Origin: Balanoglossus misakiensis
Taxonomy: Eukaryota > Animalia > Hemichordata
Assembly: GCA_040954595.2 (NCBI GenBank)
Contig: CM082590.2
Span: forward strand, 8,743,764-8,807,763
DNA length: 64,000 nt
Reading direction: 5' to 3'
Position numbers and translations under genes: made by a program. How positions within the stretch are numbered: position 1 is the stretch's first letter; each line of letters opens with the position of its first letter. Under the pieces are notes generated by a model, which was not told the origin of the DNA, did no database searches, and was given only the letters and a program-made list of their open reading frames with translations. Positions 5,571-43,811 of the stretch are shown here, in pieces.

Positions 5571-9744
<4,174 letters not shown>

Positions 9745-19283: not shown

Positions 19284-20562
19284 ATGAAGAATTTCCTCGC
19301 TGTGTCGTGCCTTTTTGCGATGATTGTAATGTGTAGAGCAGGTATGTGTATTTTTAATATTCATATATCATGTACAATTTTTTTAAAACTGGAAAATAAG
19401 GTACAGATAGCGAGAGAGTCATGAGAATGGACAGACAAACTTTAAAACACTCTCAGACAGACAGACAGGGAGACAGACAGGCAGACAGAGACAGACAGAA
19501 ATGGCAGACTATTAATATATATACGTGGCGTACAGCATAACCACTGAACTGTACAATGATACACTTTCACAACGTGACCCTTGATAACGACGTATATACC
19601 ATTGTTCACATATTCCCTATACTGTCAATTTCTACCGATGTTTCAATGCGCTGATGTGATTTACTTTGGAGACAAAACGTGAAAAAATCGGTGTGGCGAT
19701 TTACAGAATGAAAAAAAAATGGAATTCGACATTTCCATCTTTTGTGGGGTCGGCAGTAAAAGCTTATCATGGCCACACCCGTCTAACTGTTTGCTGTGAC
19801 ATAAATTCAACACACGGTGCGCCCAGTACATTTCACAAGGTTTTTTCCAATTAGAGAGCCTCGTCCGTGACAACGCGCGCACGCGTGTTTATGTTGACAA
19901 GACACGTACTATACTAGTATTTCCTTGTATACAGCTTTGCCATGGAAACCGACAGTTGCTGACACATTGAACGATGCTGTCAGTATTTTTTTACATCCTG
20001 TTCAAGAACGACAGTTTCTTGTTCTACTCTTATAGCTTTATGACATTTTCAGTCTTTTAGCTTCTCAACAAAGCATGTAAATGAGCTGCAAATTAATTAA
20101 AATTATTTAGCTTGTCAACAAAATACATGTATACCTGTAAAGGCAGTTGTTGTTCTGACATTTGTATTTTAAAGGGACAAAGTCTCTCTCTCGCTGCCCT
20201 TTTTCCATTAATTATGTTTGATACAAGACACCGTTTATGTTATTCTACATGTGGATATATAGAGAATCCACATTCAACGACACATAACTTCCATCCCGTT
20301 TGTAGGATATGAGAGTAAAAATCCAGCCAAAATGAATAAATGGTAAACACCGATTATTCATTTTGGCGAGTTTTTCACTCTCGTGTCTACAAGTTGGATG
20401 AAAGTTGTGTGTGGTTGAACGTTGATTCACTTTATAGTTTATATCCACATGTAGAATAATATAAACGGTGTCTTCTATCAAATATAATTAATTGAAAAAG
20501 GGCAGCGAGAGAGAGACTTTGTCCCTTTAATCCGGACTGGAATTCAATGGTCAACAACAACA

Positions 20563-20628
<66 letters not shown>

Positions 20629-22062: not shown

Positions 22063-24863
22063 CAAACAAGCGTCTACAGTTCTGGATTGGAATTTATATA
22101 ATTAGGTGTTTCACAAATCTTCAATATTTCTTTATACACACAACCCAGAAAACCTGAACCGCACATAAGTATTGTAATATAATTGTTGTACCAAAAACAA
22201 GGTTACCCGAGCAAACTCTCTCATTTTCGTACCCATGGACGATTGTTCAAAAACGTCACGGAGAAAAGAACGACATATTTGTGTACTCTTTTTATGGAAC
22301 CCGATTAAATGGGTGTGGCACTCGTTTAATATATCACTTGTTCAAATTGCAACATACAGCCAAAATCAGGCGTTGATAAGATGTCCATGCATATTATATC
22401 AGTAAGCTTATTTATTTAGATGGACCAATCTAAAATGGAAAGTAAAATCATGAAAATAATGCAAACATTGGCAGCTCTTGGTGCTTTTTTGTCCAAATTT
22501 TCGTTCAGAGAATAGTCGTTTGTTCATGGCTCTACATCGATGCCGGTTCTGGCGTTTTCTATTTGATTGACACAACTAGTCCGCCCCCCCGGGGCAGTTG
22601 TGTTATGGGTAGGATAGGGTCAGTCGGTTTGAATAGACGACCCCCCCCCCCTAGGCTAGGTAAGAGTCGGGCGAGGACACTCGACCGAACGACCCTAACC
22701 TCACTACAATTATTGCAGCTAATCGGATTCAAATCAAATGTAAGGAATAGTCAGTCCATCCTCTCCTCTTTGTCTCGTACTTTTCGTCGGTCGGTTAGGA
22801 AAGACAGCGAAATTTAGATAGAGGACAAACGACGAACTCAATACGAGTGAAAAAACACAATCACAAAACTATAGGCTACCTCTGTTTTAAATCTCACTGC
22901 GTAACATCTACAGAAATTCCCATGGCCAGTTTCCGTTATTACAGTGACTGTATTTCGATATATATATATTTGGTTTACATAAACAGATATTTCACCAGAT
23001 TTGTACACGTTTTCTACCTTGAAACATTTCTTTTCACAGTAAGGCTATCGATTGTATGCAAAATCAGAATTGTCAATGAAGGTTGTTTGTGTGTGATTGT
23101 TTTTATGGCAATAAAGACTACTTTAGTGATTGTACATTTGAAGGCTGTGTGCGTTTTATAGTGTGGTTGAATAGTTCTAGCTAATTCGGTGCCCCTGGCC
23201 ACAAGATGTTTGGGATTTTGGTCTCAGCGAGCATCAATCGAAGGAACTTTGGATATAAAAGACAAATTGCGAGGTGGATAATACCATGACAGTTGCTTAT
23301 ATTACTGCTTTGAGTACTGGGCCTATACTCCTGATGTGACCTTTACGTTTTGATGGTACAGATTTACTCTTTTGAGTTTTAGCTCTGGAACTGCCCCGCA
23401 TGTATTGAATGTGTGTACTCTTAACTCATCCTAGAACAAAAACTGTGGCCTTAGGCCTACGTCTTGGCAATTTATTGGTAGGCCTTCATGTTTTGATTCT
23501 AGAACAGTTCACCATTATATACGCATTGAAGTTATGCACTCTAAGTCATCCTGGAACAATAAAATTGGATTTTGTCTGGTACAAAAGAGTGTTGTTGTAT
23601 TGTTGAATGGTGTATGATGTCATACCAATAAATCACCAAGACATTAGGTCACTCAGAGGTCACTGTACAGGTATACCGCAGAAAATGACCGCAGACATTA
23701 CTGACTTCACCGCTGGCGGCGCCCTAAAACACCCATTTCAAGCGATTTTTGTGCTATTTTCGTTACGCCACATTAGAACTTCTTCGATTTTCTTCAGAAC
23801 TATTATCAACGAAAAACTAACGAGATTGAGCTGTAAGGGCAAATATGGTGTCCTATATTATTTTCTCATATGACCACAGAAGAATGCACGTGAGCTATCA
23901 ATGTCGTCCGATGACACTTTGTAGCTCCTATCCACGTACTACAAATCGCGCCATTGGCTAACATTCGCGCGTGTTGATCAAGAAATGTTTATTATCCAAT
24001 CAACGCTTGTGTTACATAACACTTCCGGATTAGCAGTGTGGGATGGATTTTGGAAGGATAGAAATCAGCCAGGATGTGTCTATCCTACATTTTCGTAGTT
24101 TTTGATAAAAAATCAGCACAATACACCCGTGCGCTGGATATCACTTAACACCAGGAATTATTTGTGTGCCTTTATTGACATTTTTGGGACTTGGACTTGT
24201 GACACGCCACGGATTTGTTGGATGGAGAAGATTCGCTGGATTTCTACAACTACAAGAACCTAGAACAGAAAGCAGGTAAGATTCTCTGAACTGGCTGGGA
24301 CAACTGGCCTTTTACATACGTTGTAATTGCACGTGCGCCCACCAAAACTTTCTAAAACTTGGAAGTTAATGTAGACTAAGATTCTGACGTGAAACTGTCG
24401 TCGGTAATCTTGCCAAGTATAAGTCAAACGATTCTTCTGTACATTTTTGTCTCATCGCGCGCGTGACCACTACAACACGTCTAGAAAACTGAGCTTGCAA
24501 TCGACTTAAAAAGGAAATACAAAATCCCTGTAAGGTGTAATTGTAGTATGTTGTCTAATGTACTAGAATGGGATTCAAATAAAACTGAAGACGCGTTGCG
24601 TTCACTGTTTAAACTGACAGAGAAACGTGCGTCTGTTTGTCGCAAAAGTTTACTCAAAATTTGCATGAAATATACAAACAAGGAACCAACCCGCGTGATG
24701 GGCGTGGTCGGGCCTAGCCTAGCAACGCGTTTTCAAACGGCGATTTCGCTGCATTAAAATATCAAAACTTACCGAAATGTAGCGGAAAGAGCTTGATATA
24801 TGTATTCTAAGATACGGTGCGTGAAAATGTTAAGTTTAGGAAGCCAAACTTCGCGTAACGGCA

Positions 24864-26246
24864 ATGTTTCGGTGGCGCATGATTGTACTGGTCAATTTCC
24901 TAAACGGTAAAGGCAATCTCAAAGTCAACGAATGTGTAGTGACGGTTTTCGCGCCGGCATATTGGACGTATGAACCCGGAGCGACGATTTCAATCCACCG
25001 GATGCGTGAAAGATATTTTTCCGAGAACAGCTGTACCCTAGAACCGGTAAGTGTTGTTGCCATCTAATCTTCTTTTCACTTGATTGATGATATTTAAGAG
25101 AGGATGAGGGCGATCTTTGTACTTATAATATAAGGGTGTTTTAGCAGTGTTGGCCACAGATGCTTTCATTATAAATTGTATGCTTGGATCAACGGTAAAT
25201 GTTATCAGGGTTACCTAGCCATTTTGCCAGATTTCTCCTTGATATAGCAATGCATTTCTAATAGATGTAGAGCAGAAATTAATGTTCCAAAATAATAGTG
25301 TTCCCAACCCGGCAAAAACACTGAATTTATCTTTCAGAGGGTAGCAACTGCATGGAAACTGTACAGTAATGATGTAATAAATCCTTTAACAAATGAAAGA
25401 GACATGCAGCAATGATTGCAAGAAACAAGACATGCTCTCTCAAGACAAGAATGGCACACTTTCCCTAAAAGGTAAAAACGAACTTTTTTTGTTATCCTTT
25501 GATCTCACTACAACAAGATTACATTAAGGGAATTCAAAACATACTTTGGAATACATAGTTTTTATATTAAGATTTATCATTGTAATTAATAAGGTTAAGT
25601 GAATGACATTGTTTTGGAAGTCTATGTGCACCTGTATTCATGTCCCCTCCCCAATATATTTGAACAAAGTTGCCACATGAGGGCAGTATCGCACTCCAAG
25701 ATTTACTGTACACTGTTTTCTTTGACCAACAGTAACTGTCAGTTGTGCACCATACTTCTGTAAATCCACACTGTTAATTCATTCATATGAATAAAGAATA
25801 ATGCATGAATTTTGCCAGAGAAGAATATAGTGATACACAGTCACTATGAGTCATTTTAGGCCACACTGACAATTGAACAACTGTGGAAATTAATTGCTCT
25901 ACCAAACACAGTCATCACAAGCCATTTTCACTGATTCTAGGCCACATTGGCAAGCTACCAGTAATGACTATTAAAATTATTTTCAACTGTGATTTCAATA
26001 AATATTTCTTTTGTTCACAGGGTTGAGATGCTATCTGGAGGAGTTTTTGCTTCAGTAAACTCCGGCAAAGTTGTGGTGCTGTACAGTTACCCGGGATTTA
26101 CACCACTTTTCAGTGATACCACCATCTGATTCTGCATGTTTGAAAATCTGGCTGATGCTGATGAACCAGAACTTAAAGCTGTCCTGATCTGTTTAGTGTG
26201 TGAAGATCTGGAATGGAGTCTGGTTGTCTACTGGACATATATGAAA
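24864..26246 (+). pseudogene. Three-exon reading frame (24864-25046, 25338-25471, 26021-26246; 181 codons) interrupted only by two in-frame TGA codons
   Basis: Good GT/AG sites; phases 0 and 2 keep one frame throughout; TGA at 25413-25415 and 26127-26129; no family recognised. Confidence 0.5.
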
Positions 26247-27049
26247 GTAAGTCAAGCAATTTACTGTAGATGAGTTTAATTTGTATGTACCCACACACAC
26301 GCCCACAATGACATGCACGCTCGCTCACTCACTCACTCACTCACTCATTCATACATATAAGTGGCAAATAAAAGCTCTAAAGATCAAAATGACAGTTATT
26401 GATAGTCAGTTAAAACCAACACTGTTGCCATAGAATAACAAAACTATTGGCACACACATGAAATTTGGAGGAAAAACAACTCAGGTTTATTCAAATTTTG
26501 AAAGATTAGTCTGGACTGGTAATGGCACTAGGTAGCGGTACAGAATGCAGCATTGGCCTATCCCCGATTCTTGACTGGATAGCGCTTGGAGTTCGAGAGT
26601 AAGCTGTGACCTCGAATGACCCTTCCAAGGGTAGTTTCCTGTCTCGATTCTACCACTGGCGGTGCTGTGCTGCAGAACAGCATACGAGTCAATCACTTTT
26701 AGTATGCAGATAATGTCTCTAAACATAATTTTGAAGTCACTCACAGGGACCGTACTGTAACCAAGCAAAAAAAAATAAAACATTTAGGAAATGCGAAGTA
26801 TACAAAGACTAAGAAAAAAGGCTGAATTAATAAGATGACATTATGAAAATGCAAAGCCCCCCTAAAACAACAACAACAAACAAACAAACAAACAAAAACA
26901 ACAACAGCAAACAAACCCCCCAAAACAACAACTTTATGCCCTATGAAATTGAAAGACCAGTGAAAATTTAGTGGTATATAAATTATAATTTTTTTTTTTA
27001 TATTGATTCACAACAAGTCCTACTTTTGGTCACGTCAACTTTTATATGC

Positions 27050-28235
27050 ACATTAATCAAATGTACGGCTTTGGTCCAAAAACAAACGTGTTCCAACACA
27101 TCTTGCTTAACTTTAAGTCATCGAATTTGTGTATTACCAAGAGGCAGTGATATGCTTAGTCAGGTTATTGTGGCCAAAGTGGAATGTACCTGTTCTCCTT
27201 GATAAGGGCTCCACAGCCAAATTAAATTGTCAAGTTGTTTTCTAGCCAAACATGCTCGTTAAATAATAAAATGCATGGCTTGGTTCAAAACAAATTTGTT
27301 CCAACACATCTGGCCTAACTATAACAGTCGCTATATTTCTGTGTTACCAAGAGGCAATGGTATGCTTAGTCAGGTTATTGTGGCCAAAGTGGAACGTACC
27401 TGTTCTCCTTGATAAGAGCTTCACAGCCAAATTAAATTGTCAAGCTGTTTTCTAGCCAAACATGAAAATTAAGCCATAAAACATTGATCAGAAAAAGAAA
27501 GTTCTCCAGGTAAAACAATGCTTGAAAAAAAAGTCTTAGATTTAGTGTATTTATTTGTGTCCGTTGCATACAGAAAGTTTGCAACCTGAGTTTGAAATAA
27601 ATGTGCAACTCCTCTGAATAAACTCCCCATTGTAACCATTAATCCTTGTGTTACCACTACTTACTGGAGTTTTTATTATATGCTTGTTAAATAATAAAAT
27701 GCATGGCTTGGTCCAAAACAAATTTGTTCCAACACATCTGGCTTATTTTTAAGTCACCACATTTGTGTGTTACCAGGAGGCAAAGGTATCCTTGGTCAGG
27801 GTATAATCACTATTTTGGCCCAAGTGGAACGTACCTGTCCTCTCTGATAACAGCTCCACAGCTTGAGAGAGAGACAGTAAAAATTTTAACTTGTTAACAT
27901 TCTTAATGCCGAGGAAGGAGTACACTTGAGAATTTGCATTGTATAGAGAGATTCGCTACACATTCCTTTTTGTACTCTTAACAATTTGAGATTTTATTTT
28001 AAAATCTGGTTGTGGTATTAGTACCTGGTTTGATGGAGTAGAAAATATGAAGCAGAAAAAGGAATTACGCTGGTAAAACAATGATTGAAAAATAGTCTTA
28101 GATTGGTTGTGTTTATATTGTAATTATTCATCTAAATTTAAGTCACATACAGAAAGATTGCAGCCAGGTTGAATTAAATGTACGGTTCCCCTCAACCAGC
28201 TTCCCAATGGTAAAAATTATCGTGTTACCGCTAAT
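27050..28235. repeat. Diverged local duplications (~200-bp unit x3 plus a duplicated spacer)
   Basis: GGCTTGGTCCAAAACAAATTTGTTCCAACACATCT...AAGTGGAACGTACCTGT variants at ~27067, ~27277 and ~27705; ~27500-27660 resembles ~28060-28232. Confidence 0.8.
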
Positions 28236-28971
28236 TGATGATTTGGAAAAAAATTCCAACAAGAAGCTCGTTATCATGCTAGTTGTGATGTAATTGCAAC
28301 TCAGTGTTTTGCAATGTCTGGAACAGGGAATTTAGAACAGAAATTCTTCAGGGTGCCCATGCTGATAGAATTATAAAGATAGAATTATAAATGAAACTGT
28401 TAGTTATGCAGTAATGAAATTGACTGATATCATTAGATTGGTTTAATAAACAACTCAAACATTCAAACAAATGCCTGTAGAAAGTTTGGTGGAGTTGGTA
28501 TTTGTTTATCAAGCAAACACAGTAACACTATACCGGTATAATGTATGATTATTGTTTTTCTGGTTTGTCATGGTATTTTAGATGTCATTTTTTCAAATAA
28601 GATTTCTCTGTATTCACTTATTTGTTCATGCTACATTCCATTAATTTATTGTGTGTATTGTCAAAATATTTAGGGCTGTGTGCAAAAAATTCCTCAGGCT
28701 GCAAAATTGGGTCTATTGGAACACTTTATGTGACATATCCCACCATAATTTTGATGAATAGCCGATCATATATTCTGACTTTATTTGTAGTGTATAAGCA
28801 GTGTATTTACTTACAGTGTTTTTATGACTTTTTTTACAGTCACTCAAGTCTCTCTTCAAAATCACATGATTATAGCCAGAAGACGCCGTCTCAGAACCAA
28901 GTAACAGTTGTTGGACTCGAGACCACCGCAAAAGTTGGTGGGTTTTAGAGCTTTTGGTGTGTTTCAGCTGC

Positions 28972-31900
28972 ATGATGGGCAATTTTTGTTGTAAGAAAAC
29001 CAGGGCTTCCCAGAAATATGAAGAGCCACAGGTAAGTGCTTAGTGACCAGTTGAACTGAAGTTATGGGCATCAGCCTTAATTGCTGCTATTAGTCTGTGT
29101 GGAAGAGGAAAATGGTAAAGAGCACTAACAAGATTGTCAGTATACTGAAATTATGCATGATTCCAGTGCTTTGAAGCATTTGATGGACAAAATGCCGTAA
29201 AGTACATGTATGTCATATCAACACAGCTAAATTGTGATTGTAAAAACTAATTGACAAATAGTCAATGCACTGCAACACTTTAAATGCAGAGTGAAGTGCG
29301 GTTTTATAAATCCAACAGTCGCAAAATTTGCCATTTATATGGCACAATGTTTGTGTTAATATTAACGAAACTGTTTTGACATCTGTGAGTGAGTGAGTGA
29401 ATGAGTGAGAGTGTTAGAGGGTGATGGAGTCAGTTGTCGAGTTGATCACTGAAAATGTAATGTAATGCAAACAGTAATGTGTTGCACTTCATCAGATTGT
29501 GAAACGTAGTATGTCACAGTAATTGTTCATCATGACCATCAGTGTTTTTGCTAAGGATGGGGAACATTGGTAATGGATTTGGGAACCCCGGTAACATTTC
29601 TACAACCCCCTAATATTTATTGATACACCCAGGGGAAGTTCCGAACCCCGGTAAAATGACTGGGGAACTCCGGTAGATTTTACCTAGGTATCGCCCTTAA
29701 CCAAAACACTGACCATGATTTTATTGACTAGAATGTGTGACTGTGTGCTGGACACTTTCATACTTTGTGGAATGTTGTTGTTCAATGGCATTTAAGTGGT
29801 TACCAGGGTTTTAAGCTTTTGGTGTGTTTTGGGGATATTTCAGGTACACCCAACAGACAGTGAATCTGATGAGGGAACAACGGCTTTGCAGGAATATAAA
29901 GACCCACAGGTAAGTGACTTTTGAACTGAAGTTAGTCAGCTGTTTGCACTATTGAAAAATAGTCTGATCCTGCAAGGGGAAGTTTTTAACATCAAATTGT
30001 AACGTTAATAGGTGTTTCAGAATAAAGTATACTGAGATTTTTCGTGATGCCACTATACTGTTTTTGATGGACAAAATACTTTGTGTTTTGGGGATATTTC
30101 AGGTACACCTAACGGACTGTGGATCTGGTTCAGGAACAACAGCTTGGCAGGAACATAATGACCCACAGGTAAGTGACTGTTGAACTGAAGTTATGGGCAG
30201 CTAGCGTGTGCTAGAGGAAATATTGTCTGTCTGATTGAGAGGAAAACTTTAAATTGTAACACACAGTACGTGTTTCAGAATAATGTCTTTCAGTATGCTG
30301 AGATTATTCATCATTCCATTGCAATCTGTTTTATTTTGGTGAAGAATAATCATGGCATAATGTTTAGCAATTGTGTGATGTCATCTTTTTATCCACGGTG
30401 ACATCACAGTTTAATTGTTTTCACAATTCTTCATCAATGACGATTTCAATGTTTTCCTATAATATTACTGCTGTTTATGATTTCATATTGAGCATATTTA
30501 AAAAAACAAACAAGTGATGTCTGTTGATTGTTACAGCTTCTCATCAATGCCGCAAGGGATGGTGACATTGCAATGATCCAGTCGCTGAAAGCTCAGGGAG
30601 CTGATGTTAAGATACAAAACAAGGTAAATATTAACCTGACTTCTAGAGGTTAATTCTAATCAATATACAAACATTTGTTTGTTTGTTTATTTGTTTAAGG
30701 AAACCTCACATTACATTTCAATTTTTGTGACATTGTTCTCATGCTCCTCCTTCATTACTTACAGAATGGAAACACACCTTTGCACTATGCAGCAAGGTAT
30801 GGCAGTGAAGGCCGAGTCGGATTGTTATTGGAGCGCAAAGCTGATGCTAACATACAAAACAAGGTAAATACCAACCTGACTCCTACAGGTTAATTCTACT
30901 CTGATCGACAGACAAACATTTTGTTTGTTTGTTTGTTTAAGGAATCCTCACATTGCATTTAATTTTTTGTGACAATATTCTCATGCTCCTCCTTCATTAC
31001 TTACAGGATGGAGACACACCTTTGCACTATGCAGCAAGGTATGGCGATGAAGGCCGTGTCAGATTGTTATTGGAACACAAAGCTGATGTAACCATACAAA
31101 ATAAGGTAAATACCAACCTGACTCCTACAGGTTAATTCTAATCAACATACAAACATTTGTTTTTTTTTTTTTTTTATTTATTTAAGGAGACCTCACAATA
31201 CATTTCAATTTTGTGACATTATTCTCATGCTCCTCCTTCATTACTTACAGAATGGACACACACCTTTGCACTTCGCAGCAGCAAGGTATGGCAGTGAAGG
31301 CCGTGTCAGATTGTTGTTGGAACACAAAGCTGATGCTAACATACAAAACAAGGTAAATACCAACATGACTTATACAGGTTAATTCTTATCTGATCGACAT
31401 ACAAACATTTTGTTTGTCTGTTTGTTTGTTTGTTTGTTTGTTTAAAGGAAACCTCATAGCATATATGAATTGTTGTGACATTGTTCTCATGCTCCTCCTT
31501 CATTACTTACAGGATGGAAATGCACCTTTGCACTCTGCAGCAAGGTTTGGTGATGAAGGCCGTGTCAGATTGTTATTGGAACACAAAGCTGATGTTAACA
31601 TACAAAACGCGGTAAATACCAACCTATAATTCTAATCAACATACAAACAATTATATGCCTATTTGTTTGGTAATTTTTTTTTTTTTAAAGGAAACCTCAC
31701 ATTACATTTCAATTTTTGTGACATTGTTCTCATGCTCCTCCTTCATTACTTACAGAATGGAGACACACCTTTGCACTATGCAGCAAGGTCTGGTGATGAA
31801 GGCCGTGTCCGATTGTTATTGGAACACAAAGCTGATGTTAACATACAAAACAAGGTAAATACCAACCTGACTCCTACAGGTTAATTCTACTCTGATCGAC

Positions 31901-34900
31901 ATACAAACAATTTGTTTGTTTATTTGTTTAAGGAAACCACACATTACCGTTAAAGTTATTTTATAAGTTGCAGTGGTATTATAAGTCGCACCCCTTCTTT
32001 GAAAGACTTGTTTGGGAGGAGATTTTAAGGAAATGAATACAACAGAACATTGGTATTATAAGTCGCACCCCCTTTTCGGCACACACTGTCACCCAAAAAA
32101 GGCGCGTCAATTTTTGTGACATTGTTCTCATGCTCCTCCTTCATTACTTACAGAATGGAAACACACCTTTGCACATTGCAGCAGGGTGGGGTAATAAAGG
32201 CCGTGTCAGAATGCTATTGGAACACAAAGCTGATGCTACCATACAAAACGCGGTAAATACCAACCTATAATTCTAATCAACATACAAACAATTATATGCC
32301 TATTTGTTTGGTAATTTTTTTTTTTAAAAGGAAACCTCGCATTACATTTAAATTTTTGTGACATTGTTCTCATGCTCCTCCTTCATTACTTACAGAATGG
32401 AGACACACCTTTGCACTTTGCAGCAAGGTCTGGTGATGAAGGCCGTGTCCGATTGTTATTGGAACACAAAGCTGATGTTAACATACAAAACAAGGTAAAT
32501 ACCAACGTGACTTCTGCAAGTTGATGGAAGTAACATTGAAATGTGTTTATTTGTTTGTTTGTTTATTTGTCTATCTGTCTGTTTGTTTGTTTGTTTTTTT
32601 GTTTGTTTGTTTTTCAGTCAGTTTTGTTTGTTTAAGAAAATCCCCACAGTACATTTAAATTTTTTTGACATTATTCTCATGCTCCTCCTTCATTACTTAC
32701 AGGATGGAGACACACCTTTGCACTATGCAGCAAAGTATAGCGATGAAGGCCGTGTCAGATTGCTATTGGAACACAAAGCTGATGTTAAGATACAAAACAA
32801 GGTAAATATTAACCTGACTTCTGGAGGTTAATTCTAATCAATATACAAACATTTGTTTGTTTGTTTTGTTTATTTATTTAAGGAGTCGTGACCTCACTGT
32901 ACATTTAAATTTTTTTGACATTATTCTCATGCTCCTCCTTCATTACTTACAGAAAGAAGACACACCTTTGCACCTTGCAGCAGGATCTGGTGATGAAGGC
33001 CGTGTCAGATTGTTATTGGAACACAAAGCTGATGTTAACATACAAAATGAGGTAAATACCAACGTGACTTCTACAGGTTAATTCTAATCAACATACAAAC
33101 ATTTGTTTGTTTTGTTTTTTTATTTATTTAAGGAGACCTCACAATACATTTCAATTTTGTGACATTATTCTCATGCTCCTCCTTCATTACTTACAGGATG
33201 GAGACACACCTTTGCACTTTGCAGCAAGGTATGGCGATGAAGGCCGTGTCCGATTGTTATTGGAACACAACGCTGATGTTAACATACAAAACAAGGTAAA
33301 TACCAACATGACTTCTGCAAGTTGATGGTAATCAACATAGAAATTTGTTTGTTTGTCTGTTTTGTTTGTTTGTTTGTCAGAAAGTTTTGTTAGTTTATGA
33401 AAATCCCCACAGTACATTTCAATTTTGTGACATTGTTCTCATGCTCCTCCTTCATTACTTACAGTGTGGAGACACACCTTTGCACTATGCAACAAGGTAT
33501 AGCGATGAAGGCCGTGTCAGAATGTTATTGGTACACAAAGCTGATGCTAACATACAAAACAAGGTAAATACCAACATGACTTATACAGGTTAATTCTTAT
33601 CTGATCGACATACAAACATTTTGTTTGTCTGTTTGTTTGTTTGTTTGTTTGTTTAAAGGAAACCTCATAGCATATATGAATTGTTGTGACATTGTTCTCA
33701 TGCTCCTCCTTCATTACTTACAGGATGGAAATGCACCTTTGCACCTTGCAGTAGGATCTGATGATGAGGGCCGTGTCAGAATGCTATTGGAACACAAAGC
33801 TGATGCTACCATACAAAACGCGGTAAATACCAACCTATAATTCTAATCAACATACAAACAATTATATGCCTATTTGTTTGGTAATTTTTAAATAATAACA
33901 CATGATAGCGAGGGCAATATCACGATTTGAAGCCTGCACGAGGGATGGTGATCTCTGACTATAATATTGATGATGCCCGAGCCGCAGGCGAGGGTATCAT
34001 CAATATTGTGGTCAGAGATCACCAGCCCGAGAGCAGGCTTCAAATCGTGATGTTGCCCGAGCATCATGTGTTATTAATTTTATTACACCGAACATTTGAA
34101 CGTACATACAAGGCAGGCATAGAAGAACGTAGACACGCGTCCATATGTCGTACGTTGCTGAGAATGTAAAATGTCTCGATCTCCCAAGAATTATACGATA
34201 CCTACTTCGAACTTAGATTATTTTCAAAATACTGCACTGTTGGTTGCGATTTTGTTGTATTTACTGTCCGTTTGTGGTAAAATATCGTCCAGTTGAACAG
34301 GTGTTAAGCCTATGTGTCGCTTTGAAGCCATAGATGCGGGAGTTGACTGATCGTGGAGGAAGCCATTGAACGACAGTTTGGAACGCGCAGAAGTCGCGCG
34401 CAGAACACAAAACAACCCAGCGGGCAATATCAGCGCACGCGACAGGGCTTTATCAACTCTAGCCATGTTATATCACTTTTTTTTCTATATCACGTGAGCG
34501 CGTCTCAGCCAATCACGAATATGGTATAATACGTGAGGTGTAATAATTTTTTTTAAAAGGAAACCTCGCATTACATTTAAATTTTTGTGACATTGTTCTC
34601 ATGCTCCTCCTTCATTACTTACAGAATGGAGACACACCTTTGCACTTTGCAGCAAGGTCTGGTGATGAAGGCCGTGTCCGATTGTTATTGGAACACAAAG
34701 CTGATGTTAACATACAAAACAAGGTAAATACCAACGTGACTTCTGCAAGTTGATGGAAGTAACATTGAAATGTGTTTATTTGTTTGTTTGTTTATTTGTC
34801 TATCTGTCTGTTTGTTTGTTTGTTTTTTTGTTTGTTTGTTTTTCAGTCAGTTTTGTTTGTTTAAGAAAATCCCCACAGTACATTTAAATTTTTTTGACAT

Positions 34901-37900
34901 TATTCTCATGCTCCTCCTTCATTACTTACAGGATGGAGACACACCTTTGCACTATGCAGCAAAGTATAGCGATGAAGGCCGTGTCAGATTGCTATTGGAA
35001 CACAAAGCTGATGTTAACATACAAAATGAGGTAAATACCAACGTGACTTCTACAGGTTAATTCTAATCAACATACAAACATTTTTTTTTTTTTTTTTTTA
35101 TTTATTTAAGGAGACCTCACAATACATTTCAATTTTGTGACATTATTCTCATGCTCCTCCTTCATTACTTACAGGATGGAGACACACCTTTGCACTATGC
35201 AGCAAGGTATGGCGATGAAGGCCGTGTCCGATTGTTATTGGAACACAACGCTGATGTTAACATACAAAACAAGGTAAATACCAACATGACTTCTGCAAGT
35301 TGATGGTAATCAACATAGAAATTTGTTTGTTTGTCTGTTTTGTTTGTTTGTTTGTCAGAAAGTTTTGTTAGTTTATGAAAATCCCCACAGTACATTTCAA
35401 TTTTGTGACATTGTTCTCATGCTCCTCCTTCATTACTTACAGTGTGGAGACACACCTTTGCACTATGCAACAAGGTATAGCGATGAAGGCCGTGTCAGAA
35501 TGTTGTTGGTACACAAAGCTGATGCTAACATACAAAACAAGGTAAATACCAACATGACTTATACAGGTTAATTCTAATCAGCATATAATCATTTGTTTGT
35601 TTGTTTGTTTGTTTGTTTGTTTAAAGGAAACTTCACATTACATTTCAATTTTTGTGACATTGTTCTCATGCTCCTCCTTCATTACTTACACTTACAGATT
35701 GGAGACACACCTTTGCACATTGTAACAAGGTATGATGATGAAGGCTGTGTCAGATTGTTATTGGAACACAAAGCTGATGCGAATATACATAACAAGGTAA
35801 ATTCCAACATGACTTCTACAGGTTAATTCTAATAAGTGTTACCCGGTAGTTGTTACGTAGGTTAAGTTTGGGATTGTTTCTTGTGACCAGGTGTATTTGT
35901 TGTTTACTTTCGTTATTTGAATATTTGCATGACGAGGTGTGATATACTACTCAGACTTAACGCTGTCACGATGTTGTCGCGTCCTTCGTCTAAACTATGG
36001 AACTTTTTGTGGGACATTGGACTTGATCATTTAAATTTCCACACCTGGTCACACTCAAAGATAGTCACTTATTTTTGTGCATTTTCAGTGTGCAGTGTTT
36101 AATGTTTAATTATTACTTTATTTACTATAATTTAAATTTACCATAATTAAGGTATTACCGCTGTTGTTTGACTGTTGACCATCTTTGTTGCGTGCAGCGC
36201 TGTTTATTTTATTTTAAAATGAGCCATTCAGGCAGTCCGATTTGTTTACTGCCCTGTTTCGGCATTGAATAGCTAGGGTGTCGTAACATTACATAAAGCT
36301 GATGCTAACATTCAAAACAAGGTAAATACCAATACAGAAACAAATACAGTCGAACGCGGATAATCCGAACCTGCTGGGCGGGTTAGATTTAGTTTGGATG
36401 ATTGATTGTTCAGATAATTGATATTAGCACGTCTGAACAAAGGAAATTGACCACACCATTGGGGCATGCGTATGTTTTGATGTTTCCCACATGCACATGC
36501 ATTTTCCATGCACTCACAAAAAGAAGTTAATAAAATAACATGTATTAAGAGTTCGAAAGTTGAAAAGAAAAAAGACGAAGTCAAAGCTGCAATACTCTGA
36601 TCCATTCAACATCGTATGCGTTATGGTCATCGTACCAAACCATGAACGTGCGTAAGCCTTCCATGGCCACGGCAGAATTCACTAGAGCTGGTGTCCCATG
36701 CTCTTTATCGTTCTCATTTTCATGCCATGAGTTTATTTCTGAGAAACAAAGTCGGTGATTTCATCTTACGTTATCATTTCGAAGCTGTCATAGTTCTCGC
36801 TAGTCTCCAAATCTTCGCTGTCAGTGGCATTCAAACCGCACAAAACAAGCTCTCCGCACGAGGTCACTTCTGCAAGTGACAACTTGGCTGTCATTCATAT
36901 TGGTGCTGCCATAGTCACCGGCCGCGACCCGACACGCCTTCACTGTATCGCGGCTGTCCATGCGTTTGAAACGCTGTGTCTTTGATGTTGAAACCTCTGA
37001 CAATGTCCACCGTCCGCTCGCACGGGTCTAAGACGGGCGATATCATCCAACCCATGGCTTTCATTTGTATTATCAAAGACGGTGCTAAGCTTATTTCCAA
37101 GATTGACCAAGATTTTTACGTGTTTTACACTCGAGTGTGAAATCCTAGTGTCAAATGGTACGATACACGAAAGTGTGACACTCTGTTGTCGTAAAATGAT
37201 TGAAATATTCAATGATAAAAACGTTCTTAACACGTCCTGCCGCCCTTTACAACTGAAACAATTAGAACTGATGGTCTAAATTGTCAGTTTTTCTGCGGAA
37301 ATGTCACAGACCGCCGAGAGTACAGGTGCTTGGCCTGGCTAACTTAATGTTCAGGGACTGTACGTACCAAAGCGTTCGGATAAACGGTGTCCGGATAATC
37401 GGCGTTCGACTGTACTTGACTGTTTATTTTTATCTCTTTATTTATTTTTTTCATATAGGGAAACCCTTCATGTAATTGATGCTAATATACTGTAGAAATC
37501 TTTCATTACTGAAACTATGGACACCTTTACAATATGCAGCAATGAATACAGTGTCAGATTGTTGTTGGATCTCAAATCAAACTGTGGATGTACCCGTATT
37601 CATAGTCAGTTTCATTCTAGTACAATGATCATGTTTTTTTTAAGACATTTATGTAGAAATCGTTATTGTAAAGAAGATATGGTGACAGTTTTAGATTACT
37701 CTTTCAGTTCATCTTTCAACAAACTGAAACTAAAAAGCCTATTTAGAGGAGATACCAACCACTATGGTTTCCTCATTTTGGAGTTTTGTTTTGCGTCCTT
37801 TGCAACCACTACCACCACCATTGTAAGTTGGTACTGCAGGTATGTTTTGCGGCACTGTTTATACGCACCTATTATAGTCCCGATCTTGCTGTATCTCTTA

Positions 37901-40900
37901 CATGAAGTAATTGCTTTTGTTTTTTTTGCACAGGATGGCAACACAGCACTCCACATAGCAGCAATGAGCAGCTCTTGGAGACGGGATTATGTTGTGAAAC
38001 TGTTGCTGCAATATGGAGCTGATATTGACTGCAAAAATAAGGTACAATCTTCTGTTGCTTATTGCAATATTTTATTCTGTTTCACTGACACCATGCATTC
38101 TGATTAACTCAACCCATTTTTAAAGTTGAATCTTCACAACCATTGAATTTGAAATTCAGTTTGTATGAGTGTACAATTTTGAATTATCAGTTGGTAATAC
38201 CTGTTTTAACAGTTATTAATAATAGTATTAGCTTATCAATATCAACATCATAATTGATAGTTACTTCTATCCCAATAAAATTTAGACTGGAAAGACACCA
38301 CTTGATGTTGCAAGTTGGTCTGTTCAGGTTGTGCTGTTGGATTACATTAGGGTGAGTGTAATTTTTTGGGGGTCATGAATTTGAATAATTTATAACCTGA
38401 AATATGCAAATTCTTATGTACCCTGCATTAAGAGTGTCCATAAATATCAATGTAATAATTTGTTACATGTATTTTCTGATTTCTTTATTTAACAAGAAAC
38501 GAGATGAGTTCAGTGACCTGATGACGGAATCAGGTATGGAATGTGACACTTTTAAGTTGTTCTTCGCTGGAGATGGTGGAGTTGGTAAGACTACACTGTT
38601 GAAGTCACTTCAGAGGGTATGTTGATATTTATTGTTTTGCGCAACAGTTCTAGTAAGCCATAACATTCACATTGTAGTATGTATGGTGCATATTAGAAAA
38701 CTACTACAGGTACAAATATGGATAATTTAATATACACATAGTTGATGAAATTTCATTGTTTTGTGAAGATATTTTGTGCTGGCATTATGGAGTTCACAGG
38801 ATAAACTCTTCATTGCATTTTTATTTTTCCAATCATTGTATGAGGGAGGAGTTGAGGTTGTATTTCATTTGTTCTTTGTGTTTTAATTACCCATGGCCTT
38901 TGAAAAGGGAATATTGTAGTCGTGCACACATTGCACAGCTATGCTTTTGTCTACAAGCATATTGTGCACTTCAGTGTAGACGTTTGTACAATTTTATAAT
39001 TCACAATCAAGTACTATAAAACGGGTTATTTTCGCGAGCAATAAATTTTCGTGAAATACGCGAGAGCCAAAAATACGTGAACATAAAAGTCACGTAAAAA
39101 TGTTTTTTCGGAGATTTGCCTCTTTTGATATCGCGAAAAATTCCTGTCGTGAAAATAACCCGTTTTACAGTATGGTCATACACAAAGACAAAAAATAACT
39201 AGAAATTGTTTTCTTTCACTTTGCCTTATCAAAGAGTGAAGAAACAACTCTGGAATCTGAAGAAAGTGAACACATTCCCACACCTGGTATTGATGTCCAA
39301 AGTGTTCATATTCCTGATGTAGGAAATGCCAGTGTTTGGGATTTTGCCGGCCAGGCTGAGTATTACGTCACTCATAACATGTTTCTGGGAGCACCCAATG
39401 CTGTCTCCATATTGGTGTTCAAAGCTACAGACGAGAATGGTCAACTCAACACCTTTGAACGTGTGTTCAAGGAGGTAAGAATCTTCACAGTAAATTAACT
39501 AAACATGCTTGAGACTGGAAGTCCATATGTATTGTATCATTTATTACTTTCCATCCCCCAAAGCAGAAGAAACTGACAATTCCCAAAATATCAATTCTTG
39601 AATTATTATCTCATATTCATGATCCCTTCAAATTTGCCTCAGAATTAATATAATATTTAATTATACAAATATTCTCATTGGTAGATTTTGTTTTGGTTGC
39701 GGTTTCTGAAAGGAACAACCCACATGGACAGGTATTCATTCGATGAGCCCGGTGAAGGATACAAGAAACCAGTGGTGATATTGGTTGCAAGTCGAGCTGA
39801 TCAGTTGAAGAGGGTGGATATGGCTCTAGGTTGGTGTTGTCAGCTCATGCAAATACTGTACAATGTCAAGCTCATTGTAACATGTGTTGTTCAACTGTTG
39901 ATAAATTGATCGATAGTGAGAAGAACATGTATAGTTGTTGGACATGTCAAAGTTCGAAAAAAGCAACCAGCTATTACTGTGTCCATTTTAAGCATTAGCT
40001 AGCTGTCACTAAGAAAAAGATTCACAGCTGAACTTTATGCCTTACTTTCTGCAAATCGAATTATGCAGCAATTAGATTTGTGTTATAATTTCACAGCTCG
40101 TCATATGCTAGACGAAGTTCTGACAAGAGCACAGGAAATGTTTCAAGATTATTTGGACATCTGCACTAATGACATATTTCTGGTGAATTGCCGTGATTCT
40201 ACAGACAGTAAAATGAAGCAAGTCCGCGCCTGTTTACATCAGAAAAAAGTAATAATATTTTGCTGTTGTCAATATTGCCTCTGAATTGTTCTACCTTTAT
40301 AAACACTCTATTAATTTCAGTTACCATACAATTACAAGATTCAGTTTCATGCCTCCACCTTGAAAAAATGCAAAGACTCAAAGTGTTGGCAACATACTAC
40401 CAATGTATGTTTGATGACCCTTGCTTAAGCACCACTTGCAAATGATTAGGTTACATATTTATCCAATTTTAGGAGCCACCAAAATGTGAACTGTTTCAAA
40501 ATGTAACATAACATAGTCACATTTAACAAATATGTGATTACCTCCTTGTGTTTCATTCATCACTTGTGAGACTTGCTTGACAAGTTATGCTGTTATTTAA
40601 TATTTCTTGTTGTAATTTTTAGACAGTAAAAACACTTCCAAGCGTGTGTACCAAGATAATGGAAAAGAAGAGGGAATTATATGACGACTTCCCAGCTCTT
40701 TATTGGATAGAATATGTGGCAAGAATCAAAGAAATATACCCCACGATTGACGAAAGGTTCTTACAAAAAGCCACCAACTATCTGCATGACATAGGAGAGG
40801 TCAGTAACAATAAAGACCCAACGTGTTGCTCATCCATTCTCTTTCAGTACATATACTAGGCTGAGTGAATGTGATATTTCCATCAGTTACAAATTATTTT

Positions 40901-43049
40901 CTCTTCAGAAATCTGCAAAGGCAAATTTTACAATGTATTATTGTCTCACTGTATGATTGTAATTGTTTGTGGTTTTGGATCCCCAATATTTCTTTAATCA
41001 TAATAATATCACAAAATTACCAAAGATTATGTTAAGGTGACTTTAAGATTAAACTATTCAACTTGGCTGCCTGTGTAAAAATTGGCTTGTTGTGAGATTT
41101 TGAGGATGAACTAAAAACATATGCATGTCAAAAATTTGTCCGATGATAATTGTTTAAACAATAATGTATGCCCCAATATGCAATAATTGACAAAAGTACA
41201 TATTATGGAGTAAATGCAATGATTTCTTTTGGCTAGGGTTGATATATCAATGAGCAGGATCATTATGGTATTGGCATCAAATGGTTTAGATAATTCATTA
41301 TCAGTGGCATACTGTAGTCCCCACTGGAGCACTAGAAATGAAATTATTGAAGTTCTAAATACAGTTGTTGTGTAATTCAGTATTTAAGGATTGTGCCTTG
41401 CATACATTCATGAATCAAAATATTTCTTTTCTTGTGTACAGCTTTTGTTTGTGAAGAAGTCATCTTCGGAAAGAGAAGATGTCGTGGTATTGGATCCAAG
41501 ATGGTTGTGTTACAGGATATTTGGACCAATGTTGGCCACCCCTTTATTTGCAGAATTCAGTTCCAGATTCAAGAGAGATTGCTTTCAGACGATGGATCAG
41601 ATAGAAGATGTACTTGGTGACCGTGTAAACAGCAAACTTCTCATCGACCTTCTGGAAGATTTTGAGCTTCTCTGTCATGCACATGGCCTCACAAGGACTG
41701 GAGAGAAACTTTTCGTCATACCAGGGCTTCAAGACGATGACATGCCTAAAGATCAATGGAAATTGAATCGCATGAAGAAAATCTACCGTGGAATACGGTT
41801 TGAATGCCATGATGAATCAGATTCCTTTACAGCAGGCTTCTTCCCAAGATTACAGACCCGTCTATATAAGCGTTTCACCAACCTTGGCCAACCACCCAGT
41901 GGCTTATGGAAAAATGGTATCAAAGTGTGCCATGATATTGAAGGTCTTGTCTTTATGACCAATGGGAGAAGGGCAGTCAATGTCTGCGTACGAGTTGAAG
42001 ACAAGAATTTAATTGGTGAGGGCTACAAGCTTCTTGAGATGGTTTCCAAAGACATACAGGATGTCTTCTCAATTGCCTGTCCAGGCAACAGGATGAATCA
42101 GCTTATCCTGAGTGCAGATTCTCTTGCAAACCACGACATGGAACAAGTTGGGTTTTACACTCTCGATGACGTGCTACACGCAGAAGATATGGGGAGGAAA
42201 GTGTACAACGAGGAAGTTGGAAAAGCAGAAGATGTTTGTGACCTGCTTTGTCAAGGTCATGACACAACGATCTTACGACATAAGTGGAAACGCTGTGATA
42301 TCAAATGGATGCTTGAAGAAACCAAAAGAAAACTGACCATGAGTATGGACATTCAACGTGCACCATCTTTGCACTACGCCAGCATGGCCGAACATATGGG
42401 AATCGTCTACCAGGATGTCAGGGCACTTGAAGAGATTGCGGGTCGGGCAGGCAAACCAGTTACAGTATACATCTTTGTAGAGTGGTGTCGTAGATGCGCA
42501 GAGAAGAAACGTCATCAAAGGGAAAAAGACACCACAGAATTCCCGGCCACTTCTCATGACACACATGATGTTGATAGTGGTTTTGCAACGATGTCACCGT
42601 CATCACAACAACCAGACCCAAGCGTTCAATTCCGACGAGGAAAAGACACCACTACAGCTGCAGAATTCCCGGCCACTTCTCATGACACACATGATGTTGA
42701 TAGTGGTTTTGCAACGATGTCACCATCATCACAACAACCAGACTCAAGCGTCCAATTCCGACGAGGAAGAGACACCACTACAGCTGCAGGTGCCAGAGCC
42801 ATCTCACCTGACATAGAGACCTCCGAAGGTCGTTCAGCAAAAATGTCACAGTCATCAACATCGTCACCCCAACAAGATTCTGATGAAGAAGTGAATGCTC
42901 AGAAAACAAGACGGAAGTATCCACATTTAAAGGGACCTGTCTTCGAAAGCAACTTTGAGAATCTGTTGGCAATATTCAGCACCATGGGAAGAGAGGACAT
43001 GATCGGATTGATTGAAGAGATGTTCGAGACATTGGAAGAACGCAGATAG
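28972..43049 (+). CDS. Kinase-less ROCO protein (DAPK-like ankyrin-Roc-COR-death domain), ~29 coding exons, ~1526 aa if all exons are included
   Basis: Exons: 28972-29031, 29844-29909, 30103-30168, 30537-30623, 17 ankyrin exons 30765-35796, 37934-38041, 38286-38351, 38497-38616 (P-loop GDGGVGKT), 39235-39474 (PTPGID, WDFAGQAEYYVTH), 39685-39829 (VILVASRAD), 40097-40248, 40623-40799 (YLHDIGE), 41442-43049 (VVLDPRWLC, GFFPRLQ, LWKNG, death-domain helices). All junctions are GT-AG and in frame. Confidence 0.9.
29540..29711. mobile_element. MITE with CAGTG...CACTG TIRs and 5-bp TSD ACCAT (hAT5-like)
   Basis: Near-identical to 2793-2960; ACCAT on both flanks. Confidence 0.82.
31947..32106. mobile_element. 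Truncated pogo/Tigger-type MITE fragment inserted in an ankyrin-cassette intron
   Basis: Interrupts the conserved intron after a TA; starts CCGT; repeated TATAAGTCGCACC motifs. Confidence 0.55.
33890..34546. mobile_element. Non-autonomous hairpin element (Crypton-like) inserted in an ankyrin-cassette intron
   Basis: ~180-bp imperfect palindrome 33894-34075 with loop GAGCCGCAGGCGA, then TTATTACACC...GGTGTAATAA inverted pair; absent from sister introns 31612-31755 and 32253-32395. Confidence 0.7.
35837..36288. mobile_element. Probable solo LTR (TGTTAC...GTAACA) adjoining a 5'-truncated ankyrin exon
   Basis: TG...CA inverted termini, ~450 bp, unrelated to cassette introns; no TSD, consistent with an adjacent deletion. 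Confidence 0.45.
36293..36321 (+). pseudogene. Remnant 3' end of an ankyrin cassette exon
   Basis: AAAGCTGATGCTAACATTCAAAACAAG/GTAAATACCAA with no acceptor or 5' part. Confidence 0.8.
36347..37412. mobile_element. Non-autonomous Tc1/mariner (pogo/Tigger-like) DNA transposon, ~1.07 kb
   Basis: TA-CAGTCGAACGCGGATAATCCGAAC ... GTCCGGATAATCGGCGTTCGACTG-TA; only fragmented minus-strand ORFs inside. Confidence 0.82.
39014..39170. mobile_element. 157-bp TA-flanked MITE
   Basis: TIR CT[A/G]TAAAACGGGTTATTTTC[G/A]CGA at both ends, TA TSD. Confidence 0.85.
41442..43049 (+). CDS. ROCO terminal exon: COR domain plus interrupted death domain
   Basis: Longest ORF in the window; acceptor TGTACAG at 41441; COR motifs VVLDPRWLC, FVIPG, YRGIRFEC, GFFPRLQ, LWKNGI; AATAAA at 43315. 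Confidence 0.93.
   Translation, partial: LLFVKKSSSEREDVVVLDPRWLCYRIFGPMLATPLFAEFSSRFKRDCFQTMDQIEDVLGDRVNSKLLIDLLEDFELLCHAHGLTRTGEKLFVIPGLQDDDMPKDQWKLNRMKKIYRGIRFECHDESDSFTAGFFPRLQTRLYKRFTNLGQPPSGLWKNGIKVCHDIEGLVFMTNGRRAVNVCVRVEDKNLIGEGYKLLEMVSKDIQDVFSIACPGNRMNQLILSADSLANHDMEQVGFYTLDDVLHAEDMGRKVYNEEVGKAEDVCDLLCQGHDTTILRHKWKRCDIKWMLEETKRKLTMSMDIQRAPSLHYASMAEHMGIVYQDVRALEEIAGRAGKPVTVYIFVEWCRRCAEKKRHQREKDTTEFPATSHDTHDVDSGFATMSPSSQQPDPSVQFRRGKDTTTAAEFPATSHDTHDVDSGFATMSPSSQQPDSSVQFRRGRDTTTAAGARAISPDIETSEGRSAKMSQSSTSSPQQDSDEEVNAQKTRRKYPHLKGPVFESNFENLLAIFSTMGREDMIGLIEEMFETLEERR
42535..42789 (+). repeat. In-frame 126-bp (42-aa) coding tandem duplication
   Basis: EFPATSHDTHDVDSGFATMSPSSQQPD[P/S]SVQFRRG[K/R]DTTTAA x2. 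Confidence 0.97.
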
Positions 43050-43457: not shown

Positions 43458-43811
43458 TTAAAGGGACAAAGTCTCTCTCTCGCTGGCCTTTTTCCATTGA
43501 TTATGTTTGATACAAGACACTGTTTATGTTAATGTACATGTGGATATATAGTGAATCAATGATCAACCACACAAAACTTCCTTCCCACTTGTATGATATG
43601 AGAGTAAAAACTCGCCCAAAATGAATAAATGGTGAAGAACGATTATTCATTTTGGCGAGTTTTTTCACTCTGCTGTCTATAAGGGGGATGGAAGATGTGT
43701 GTGGTTGAACGTTCATTCACTATATATCCACATGTAAAATAACAAATGTTGTCTGGTATCAAATATAATTAATGGAAAAAGGGAAGCGAGAGAGAGACTT
43801 TGTCCCTTTAA
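43458..43811. mobile_element. Palindromic TTAA-flanked MITE (Kolobok-like family A), full length
   Basis: Same TIRs as 20169-20530. Confidence 0.88.

Follow-up and report, generated by a model that had tools for sequence, protein, structure and literature searches.

The repeat arrays closest to the one described here are known from brown algae and fungi. The brown-algal ROCO genes (LRR-Roc-COR; PMC3341825, PMC11378527) form an expanded family that combines a Roc-COR core with N-terminal repeats, encoded one per equal-length phase-0 exon, and show reshuffling of units, inactivated units in introns and positive selection on the concave face; the present locus shares these features, the selection being likely here. 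They differ in carrying LRR instead of ankyrin repeats, and the host here is an animal whose protein also has a predicted C-terminal death domain and an N-terminal acyl motif. Moreover, the units at the present locus, introns included, are much more similar to each other, and no inverted units were found there. Repeat exons of the algal genes are alternatively spliced, whereas here spliced joins were seen in short paralogous contigs.

The fungal HiC-ANK NLRs, such as Podospora Pa_3_8560 (PMC4986451), likewise contain near-identical ankyrin repeats under concerted evolution; the sites that vary and are positively selected lie on the inner helix/beta-hairpin face, and repeat number is polymorphic between individuals. 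Unlike the present gene, they carry NACHT or NB-ARC (STAND) domains and not Roc-COR; here the repeats are N-terminal, each is a separate exon, and their mean amino-acid identity is 77%, compared with a threshold of 85% in the fungal set. DAPK1, assigned to the third Roco group (PMC6337361), and the proteins annotated as 'DAPK1-like' have the same ANK-Roc-COR-death-domain order (the death domain being predicted here, and DAPK1 compared by domain order). DAPK1 has an N-terminal CaM-regulated kinase, whereas neither a kinase nor a calmodulin region was found in the present gene, whose homogenised array comprises about 20 ankyrin repeats and which belongs to a multi-copy family. The engineered DARPin libraries (PMC8248824, PMC8229355) resemble the array in having an N-cap, a constant 33-aa framework and a C-cap, and five of their six randomised positions are variable here. 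The natural array differs in that library position 33 is almost fixed, variation is added at DARPin positions 10, 15 and 16, and only 3-5 residues are used per site. Literature searches, with thin coverage of subscription journals, returned no animal ankyrin-Roco case.

The window analysed is a stretch of 64,000 nucleotides from Balanoglossus misakiensis, in which the following features were placed.

28975-29031, + strand: first coding exon, MGNFCC...
29844-29909 and 30103-30168, + strand: two duplicated 66-nt exons, an acidic/polar 22-aa linker repeat
30537-30623, + strand: N-cap ankyrin exon, 87 nt (Ank E=0.098)
30765-35796, + strand: ankyrin cassette array, 17 one-repeat exons (two units scanned with Pfam: Ank E=6e-10 and 5e-9)
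30765, 31007, 31251 (102 nt), 31513, 31756, 32154, + strand: exon starts of units 1-6
32396, 32703, 32953, 33197, 33465, 33724, + strand: exon starts of units 7-12
34625, 34932, 35175, 35443, 35698, + strand: exon starts of units 13-17
31727-31753, + strand: 27-nt acceptor-proximal intron element (example from unit 5)
31945-32110, no strand assigned: insertion in intron 5, transposon-like, unclassified
32311-33600, + strand: source block of the internal duplication, units 7-11
33888-34548, no strand assigned: insertion in intron 12 with an internal inverted repeat, transposon-like, unclassified
34540-35600, + strand: duplicated block, units 13-16
36291-36332, + strand: unit remnant, 3' half and donor, acceptor absent (blastn E=2e-12)
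37499-37576, + strand: decayed array unit with internal deletions (E=4e-7)
37934-38041 and 38286-38351, + strand: divergent last ankyrin exon and C-cap exon (Ank E=3e-10)
38497-38616, 39235-39474, 39685-39829, 40097-40248 and 40623-40799, + strand: five exons of the Roc GTPase and the start of COR (Roc E=2e-6)
41442-42290, + strand: COR domain in the last exon, directly after Roc (Pfam COR-B E=5e-7)
42291-43049, + strand: predicted death domain, split by a disordered insert of about 135 aa; stop codon at 43047-43049

The host gene has an intact open frame of 1525 aa and encodes a kinase-less ANK-Roc-COR protein with a predicted death domain. Its MGNFCC... start is presumably an N-myristoylation/palmitoylation membrane anchor. 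The Roc region contains the P-loop GDGGVGKT (G1), WDFAGQ (G3) and the G4 variant ASRAD, which is common to the homologues, and one of its introns is spanned by a spliced contig from a near-identical copy. The COR assignment is backed by a Foldseek match to the C. tepidum Roco protein (E=8e-9) and by a VIA Z of 13.6. By domain content the protein belongs to the Roco family, with a Roc GTPase domain followed by COR. The prediction of the death domain comes from the VIA match to 3mop_K, with a Z of 10.8 (under the caution level for helical bundles), an rmsd of 1.9 and 93 aligned residues, and many death folds rank high in the VIA list for the C-terminal region. Pfam Death gave no match in the window piece or in eight homologues, and a single-sequence fold of a homologue C-terminus was set aside at a pLDDT of 53. 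The disordered insert (about 42537-42941) contains a 126-nt tandem duplication. No Pfam kinase match was obtained among 64 plus-strand frames of at least 30 aa at 22100-28990, a search that shorter exons might escape, and no kinase family is present among the precomputed domains of 26 homologue matches.

All 17 array exons are in phase 0, have a common acceptor and a GTAAAT donor, and encode one ankyrin repeat apiece; 16 are 99 nt long and exon 3, with an extra codon, has 102 nt. The units differ on average by 12 nt per 99 in pairwise comparison. Only 16 distinct DNA sequences and 15 distinct protein sequences are found among the 17 because units 13-16 copy units 7, 8/9, 10 and 11. Unit 7 is identical to unit 13, including the 208-nt intron, units 10/15 and 11/16 are one base apart, and unit 14 is a chimera that has its 5' part from unit 8 and its 3' end and intron from unit 9. 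The 3' end of the N-cap exon and the intron that follows it also match those of unit 8. Incompatibility was found in 104 of 276 site pairs (Rm 9) and did not rise with distance (p=0.21). The 27-nt element next to the acceptor carries no substitution in any of the 17 units, apart from which unit 17 has a 6-nt duplication inside it, and none of 3641 neutral simulations produced such an invariant element. A Dscam-like docking site for this element was rejected, as 12 shuffled controls spanned -24 to -32 kcal/mol and the best duplex reached no more than -30.3. The homogenised background proposed in the earlier note is therefore borne out by the low divergence, the chimeric units, the block duplication and the invariant acceptor.

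The framework that the same note described as fixed or nearly so is indeed invariant at P5, L6, H7, G16, V18, L21, L22, A26, D27, I30 and N32, and the residues it listed at positions 1, 3, 8, 11-14 and 33 are correct, as are the six codons at position 8. Positions 10 (A/T/V), 20 (L/M), 28 (A/V) and 29 (N/T/K), which it omitted, vary as well. The frequent multi-nucleotide codon changes that it reported proved rare: the codons of position 8 are all linked by single steps, and only TGT at position 1 and TGG at position 12 have no one-step neighbour. Two of the three sister pairs one base apart differ at codon 8 (Y/F).

The variable sites were placed by DARPin numbering and not on a structural model, because the length of a complete homologue was beyond what could be folded, and the mapping is approximate. 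The library positions 2, 3, 5, 13, 14 and 33 (PMC8248824) correspond to exon positions 33, 1, 3, 11, 12 and 31, and were fixed beforehand. Of the positions listed in the earlier note, 1, 3, 11, 12 and 33 are library positions; positions 13 and 14 (DARPin 15 and 16) and 8 (DARPin 10) are not randomised in the libraries. Position 8 is a framework position that touches the target in one complex. Exon position 31 is randomised in libraries, yet is Q in 16 of the 17 units. The six library positions account for 15.5 of the 38.5 minimal nonsynonymous steps (p=0.003 by permutation), an enrichment that persists when only the 17 surface positions are permuted (p=0.03-0.04).

The codon model gave an omega of 2.1 for the six a priori sites (p=0.012) and of 2.8 with position 8 added (p=0.0003), although position 8 joined the set only after the data had been seen; the convex face gave 0.54-0.66. 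The dN/dS check thus came out above 1 for the contact class. These exon-only values are inflated, since exonic four-fold sites (pi 0.08) are more conserved than introns (0.16). Omega stayed at 2.6-3.2 after terminal units or the duplicated block were dropped. The comparison of M2a with M1a gave 2dL=14.1, without calibration for recombination, and called only positions 1 and 8 individually (NEB 0.97 and 1.00), with NEB <=0.24 for positions 3, 11, 12 and 33. A count of alleles at 0-fold sites gives 12 for the 11 sites of the contact codons (16 for 13 once position 8 is included), compared with 41 for the 77 free sites of introns and 4 for the 14 sites of the convex face. Under a neutral null with recombination, the allele test gave p=0.005-0.017, and a seven-site LRT>=11.6 was reached in one of 210 simulations. 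The diversity-based test gave p=0.019-0.061 for seven sites and was not significant for the strict six (p=0.066-0.099). The diversifying selection claimed earlier therefore stands as a class effect on the binding face and not in the strict six-site diversity test. Positive selection of moderate strength on the concave face is likely; it is graded so, and not as proven, because no single position other than 1 and 8 stands out and because the same codons also gather synonymous changes.

That clustering is a point in favour of relaxed constraint with uneven mutation or conversion, an account that we find unlikely but deserving of some weight. After a recent expansion of the array, folding and stacking would keep framework and convex positions constant while contact positions would drift, and a hot zone over codons 1-14 would mimic an omega above 1. 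Synonymous and nonsynonymous diversity are nearly equal in the eight codons singled out earlier (0.28 vs 0.30), where synonymous changes also concentrate (4.5 on 3.9 sites); the strict six-site result and the small number of distinct units point the same way, and the x positions of ankyrin repeats are variable by definition and vary in natural ankyrins anyway. Against this, framework codons 2, 4, 5, 6, 7, 9 and 10 show no synonymous change although they lie between the hot codons, so that a hot zone would need codon specificity. Moreover, the contact sites evolve at about twice the intron rate, the neutral simulations seldom match the observed statistics, and exposed convex positions are conserved.

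Selection could also be real and the partner endogenous, the protein guarding or scaffolding a fast-evolving host protein or acting in allorecognition or in gamete or germline conflict. Ankyrin concave faces ordinarily bind proteins. The LRRK2 ankyrin domain binds Rab29 (PMC6337361), and similar fungal repeats are reported to function in allorecognition (PMC13449251). The lineage-specific expansion of the family and the predicted death domain suit immunity, and we consider an endogenous partner improbable. That units 13-16 are two haplotypes assembled in tandem, and the real array shorter, is very improbable: the identity of units 7 and 13 and the near-identity of 10/15 and 11/16 would agree with it, but unit 14 combines 8 and 9 as a clean chimera, a unique insertion and unit 17 border the block, and every selection result persists without it.

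The nearest relatives are hemichordate and amphioxus proteins named 'DAPK1-like' at NCBI (Ptychodera, Glandiceps, Saccoglossus, Branchiostoma), those of acorn worms being closest, and the gene family is expanded in both groups. The last exon is 26-50% identical to 26 aligned homologues. In the internally conserved homologue arrays, contact positions were more variable than convex ones in 13/13 and 4/4 cases (17/17), at the protein level only; the consensus of the 13 arrays is identical to the cassette consensus here at just 11-16 of 33 positions. Public runs contain many paralogous units. In run X3, recorded as 'DNA?' and taken as RNA-like from its joins alone, 99-nt exons are joined exon-to-exon by splicing and introns are uncovered. 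These spliced contigs carry alleles missing from the window and so attest that members of the family are expressed, without bearing on this locus in particular. Most of the new alleles in runs X1-X3 lie in codons 1-13, where the 1% listing threshold is easier met, and they were not counted as evidence.

Overall, the reading that we regard as probable is that of an intact ANK-Roc-COR gene with interchangeable one-ankyrin cassettes, homogenised by recombination and likely selected on the concave face, which encodes a probable immune sensor. Unequal crossover and conversion between exon-plus-intron units of about 250 nt would homogenise the framework and reshuffle the units, with exchange probably also between paralogous loci, and selection would favour new alleles at contact positions, chiefly 1 and 8. 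By domain analogy, the acyl motif may tether the protein to the membrane, a ligand on the ankyrin solenoid may switch the GTP and dimer state of Roc-COR, and the death domain may recruit a death-fold partner and lead to cell-death or inflammatory signalling. A more speculative proposal, which we hold to be doubtful, is a pool of about 70 to 140 or more swappable ankyrin exons in at least 10 Roc-COR-death-domain loci, in which the invariant acceptor would allow free skipping or recombination, and splicing or somatic rearrangement would give each animal or cell its own combination of DARPin-like intracellular receptors. If true, this would be the ankyrin-based equivalent of diversification in Dscam or in lamprey VLRs.

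Under the favoured reading, the strategy of a homogenised array with a diversified face, known in brown-algal ROCO-LRR genes and fungal NLRs, extends to animals near the vertebrate lineage, here with ankyrin cassettes on a DAPK-like Roc-COR chassis with a predicted death domain. It also offers a natural test of DARPin design, in which the strongest variation falls at DARPin 10, fixed in the original library. Most of the differences between cassettes lie on the predicted binding face and likely result from selection diversifying a pathogen-sensing receptor, in the manner of engineered DARPin randomisation, and in hemichordates and amphioxus an overlooked expanded family labelled merely 'DAPK1-like' comes into view as a candidate set of intracellular immune sensors.

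The 17-exon ankyrin array (window 30765-35796, + strand) lies inside a gene whose GT-AG exons were joined into a single open frame of 29 exons (28975-43049) encoding 1525 aa. It begins with MGNFCC, a predicted acylation motif, followed by two linker exons of 22 aa each and an N-cap. After the 17 cassettes come a divergent repeat and a C-cap, then Roc, COR and finally a C-terminal region. Roc and COR-B have Pfam matches, and the structure predicted for the last exon (pLDDT 76) matches Roco COR domains (VIA, Z 13.6). Residues 284-528 of this model also resemble death domains (3mop_K, Z 10.8, rmsd 1.9, 93 aligned), for which Pfam gave no match in the C-terminal region. The predicted death domain is interrupted by ~135 disordered residues, and its insert is much shorter in the homologues. 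A 126-nt tandem duplication (42535-42857, 2-2.6 copies, 96%) is located inside this insert. None of 64 frames upstream of the array gene matched a Pfam family, so a kinase is unlikely. The closest relatives are proteins of Ptychodera flava (52-55%) and Glandiceps talaboti (48%), followed by 'DAPK1-like' proteins of Saccoglossus and Branchiostoma.

Each array exon encodes one ankyrin repeat (Pfam Ank matched both units scanned). All are in phase 0 and are flanked by an identical acceptor and a GTAAAT donor; one measures 102 nt, the other 16 measure 99 nt. The introns measure 143-208 nt, except for two that took insertions (299 and 802 nt), and past the end of the array lie two decayed units. 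The units comprise 16 different DNA sequences and 15 different peptides, and they form 14 distinct words over the eight positions listed as variable in the earlier note (1, 3, 8, 11, 12, 13, 14 and 33 of the 33-codon unit). Its residue and codon lists were correct on recheck; positions 10, 20, 28 and 29 also vary, and the amino acid is invariant at 11 positions.

The units are homogenised and shuffled. Unit 13 is identical to unit 7, while 15 differs from 10 and 16 from 11 by one base each. Unit 14 takes its first 21 codons from unit 8 and its end and intron from unit 9; unit 8 shares its end and intron with the N-cap exon, and unit 12 mixes features of units 4, 9 and 6. Codon 8 is the sole difference between units 5 and 7 and between 10 and 15. 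Incompatible pairs made up 104 of 276 informative site pairs (Rm=9), with no decay over distance within the array (p=0.21). The 27 bases before each AG, adjoining hypervariable codon 1, carry no substitution in 17 units, an invariance reproduced in 0/3641 neutral simulations. A docking partner for this element was searched for and not found; the invariance may stem from strong constraint on splicing or from a conversion sweep in the recent past.

In DARPin libraries, according to the available text of PMC8248824, positions 2, 3, 5, 13, 14 and 33 are randomised, and position 10 is framework yet touches the target in the D5 complex; the available text of PMC8229355 places all of these on the concave surface. 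In exon numbering they become 33, 1, 3, 11, 12 and 31 (the six sites, fixed in advance), and DARPin 10 becomes position 8 (with it, the seven sites). Of the 38.5 minimal nonsynonymous steps, 15.5 fall on the six sites (p=0.003, or 0.03-0.04 against 17 surface positions) and 19.5 on the seven (p=0.0001, or 0.001-0.004). The proposed concentration of variation at DARPin contact residues was thus borne out for the six sites, but position 8 belongs to the DARPin framework. Amino-acid variants per position averaged 2.6 at the seven contact positions, 2.0 at 13-14, 1.0 at eight convex and 0.44 at sixteen core positions, the convex and core sets being our own assignment from the ankyrin consensus.

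Allele density at 0-fold sites was 12 alleles/11 sites in the six codons and 16/13 in the seven, against 41/77 in free intron, 4/11 at four-fold and 4/14 at convex 0-fold sites. The suggested exon-intron comparison favours selection at contact codons. The diversity of exonic four-fold sites, half that of introns, counts against selection. So does the synonymous diversity of the eight listed codons, which matches the nonsynonymous (0.28 vs 0.30; 4.5 synonymous steps on 3.9 sites). Under a GY-type codon model, omega was 2.10 for the six sites (2dL 5.1, one-sided p=0.012) and 2.80 for the seven (2dL 11.6). The estimates were 2.0-2.6, 2.8-3.2 and, for convex sites, 0.59-0.66 once terminal units, the duplicated block or both had been omitted, and 1.9, 2.6 and 0.54, respectively, on a tree that included intron flanks. 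Among 210 sets simulated under omega=1 for the seven sites, 2dL reached 11.6 in one and 5.1 in four, and omega reached 2.8 in two. Against coalescent nulls that included recombination and were conditioned on the neutral level, the allele test yielded p=0.014-0.017 for the six sites and 0.005-0.006 for the seven, and the pi test 0.066-0.099 and 0.019-0.061. M2a was better than M1a (2dL 14.1, uncalibrated); its NEB value was 0.97 for position 1, 1.00 for position 8 and ≤0.24 for every other. These tests are weakened by the partly post hoc choice of position 8 and of the eight listed positions. The contact codons probably carry a genuine but moderate signal of selection, about twofold over neutral and strongest at positions 1 and 8. 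Diversifying selection on the binding face, as first proposed, is supported for the sites as a class, but individually only for these two, and the six-site pi test falls short.

Arrays of at least three similar repeats occur in 12 of 31 homologous proteins examined. In all 13 arrays, and in the four found among 143 further representatives, variability was higher at contact than at convex positions, a protein-level comparison in which selection and relaxed constraint look alike. Their consensus units (of the 13) are identical to the Balanoglossus unit at 11-16 of 33 positions; therefore, the arrays expanded separately, the ten mutually related amphioxus arrays counting as about one event. Mean variability profiles correlate with the Balanoglossus array at rho 0.54 (hemichordate) and 0.47 (amphioxus). 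In the Glandiceps protein P0001 (residues 39-533), two unit types nearly alternate, each homogenised separately. The Branchiostoma proteins P0020, P0029 and P0031, of the same Roc-COR clade, have additional PF00534 and PF00619 domains, presumably glycosyltransferase and CARD, which suggests modular sensor/effector swapping.

The array-gene locus is present in three public sequencing runs of one sample (X1-X3). Contigs identical to the window had a depth of ~32 in X1 and, for one contig, ~92 in X2. Contigs matching a single array unit numbered 386 and 347, many with alleles not in the window. Peak summed depth, once divided by the 31 words and the single-haplotype depth, suggests that the unit has at least 140-280 haplotype copies, although the tool warns that depth is not a copy number. 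Single COR-exon contigs reached depths of 560 (X1) and 2685 (X2), which by the same kind of arithmetic suggests that the gene has 17-29 haplotype copies with ≥85% identity. In X3 the exon is covered and introns essentially are not; two contigs join exon end to exon start with a 99-nt period, a third has a new exon between, and one spans across intron 39475-39684. Therefore, the family is likely transcribed and spliced as modelled, at family level only, as the X3 contigs differ from the window.

A Roc intron contains a very high-copy interspersed element (39012-39173), whose borders both show many loose ends. Several segments at 24200-26250 (+) look like exons and have good splice sites, with stops in every frame at 26022-26246; they may belong to the 5' UTR of the Roco gene or to a non-coding RNA. 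Open reading frames also suggest the last exons of a G-protein alpha subunit (8893-9744, +), presumably Gq-like. A small gene of 3 or 4 exons (19285-22062, +) has a signal-peptide-like start and a hydrophobic C-terminus; its main exon has no Pfam match. Further repeats in the window are as follows:

8559-8765, 20169-20530 and 43458-43811: MITE-like element, three copies, ~90-nt terminal inverted repeats
46019-47655: minisatellite, 88 nt, 18.6 copies
54946-56833: minisatellite, 70 nt, 26 copies
48171-50714 and 57358-59636: longer-period tandem families, ~690 nt and ~550 nt (five copies)

The available texts describe comparable systems. In brown-algal ROCO genes each LRR has an exon of its own; the units are shuffled and subject to diversifying selection, and inactivated ones sit in introns (PMC3341825). 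Alternative splicing occurs there as well (PMC11378527). In Podospora NLRs the ankyrin repeats are polymorphic in number and internally highly conserved, and five sites on their concave face are under selection (PMC4986451). The host gene works like these algal and fungal repeat systems. The Roco group that combines a death domain with an N-terminal kinase is DAPK1 (PMC6337361, available text); the host protein is a Roco protein, but not DAPK1 proper. Roc-COR proteins are viewed as conflict systems in the available part of PMC8195603, which describes no ankyrin Roco family of this kind. Within the literature searched, main texts with few subscription journals among them, no one-exon ankyrin cassettes under diversifying selection were found for an animal Roco gene.

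Beside the observed gene anatomy and sequence evolution of the array, the host protein is most likely an intracellular membrane-tethered sensor, for which we infer a ligand, activation and an immune role. A variable ankyrin solenoid of ~20 repeats would be its sensing part, Roc-COR the switch and the predicted death domain the output. New cassette orders would arise from unequal crossover and conversion, and new contact residues would be favoured by selection.
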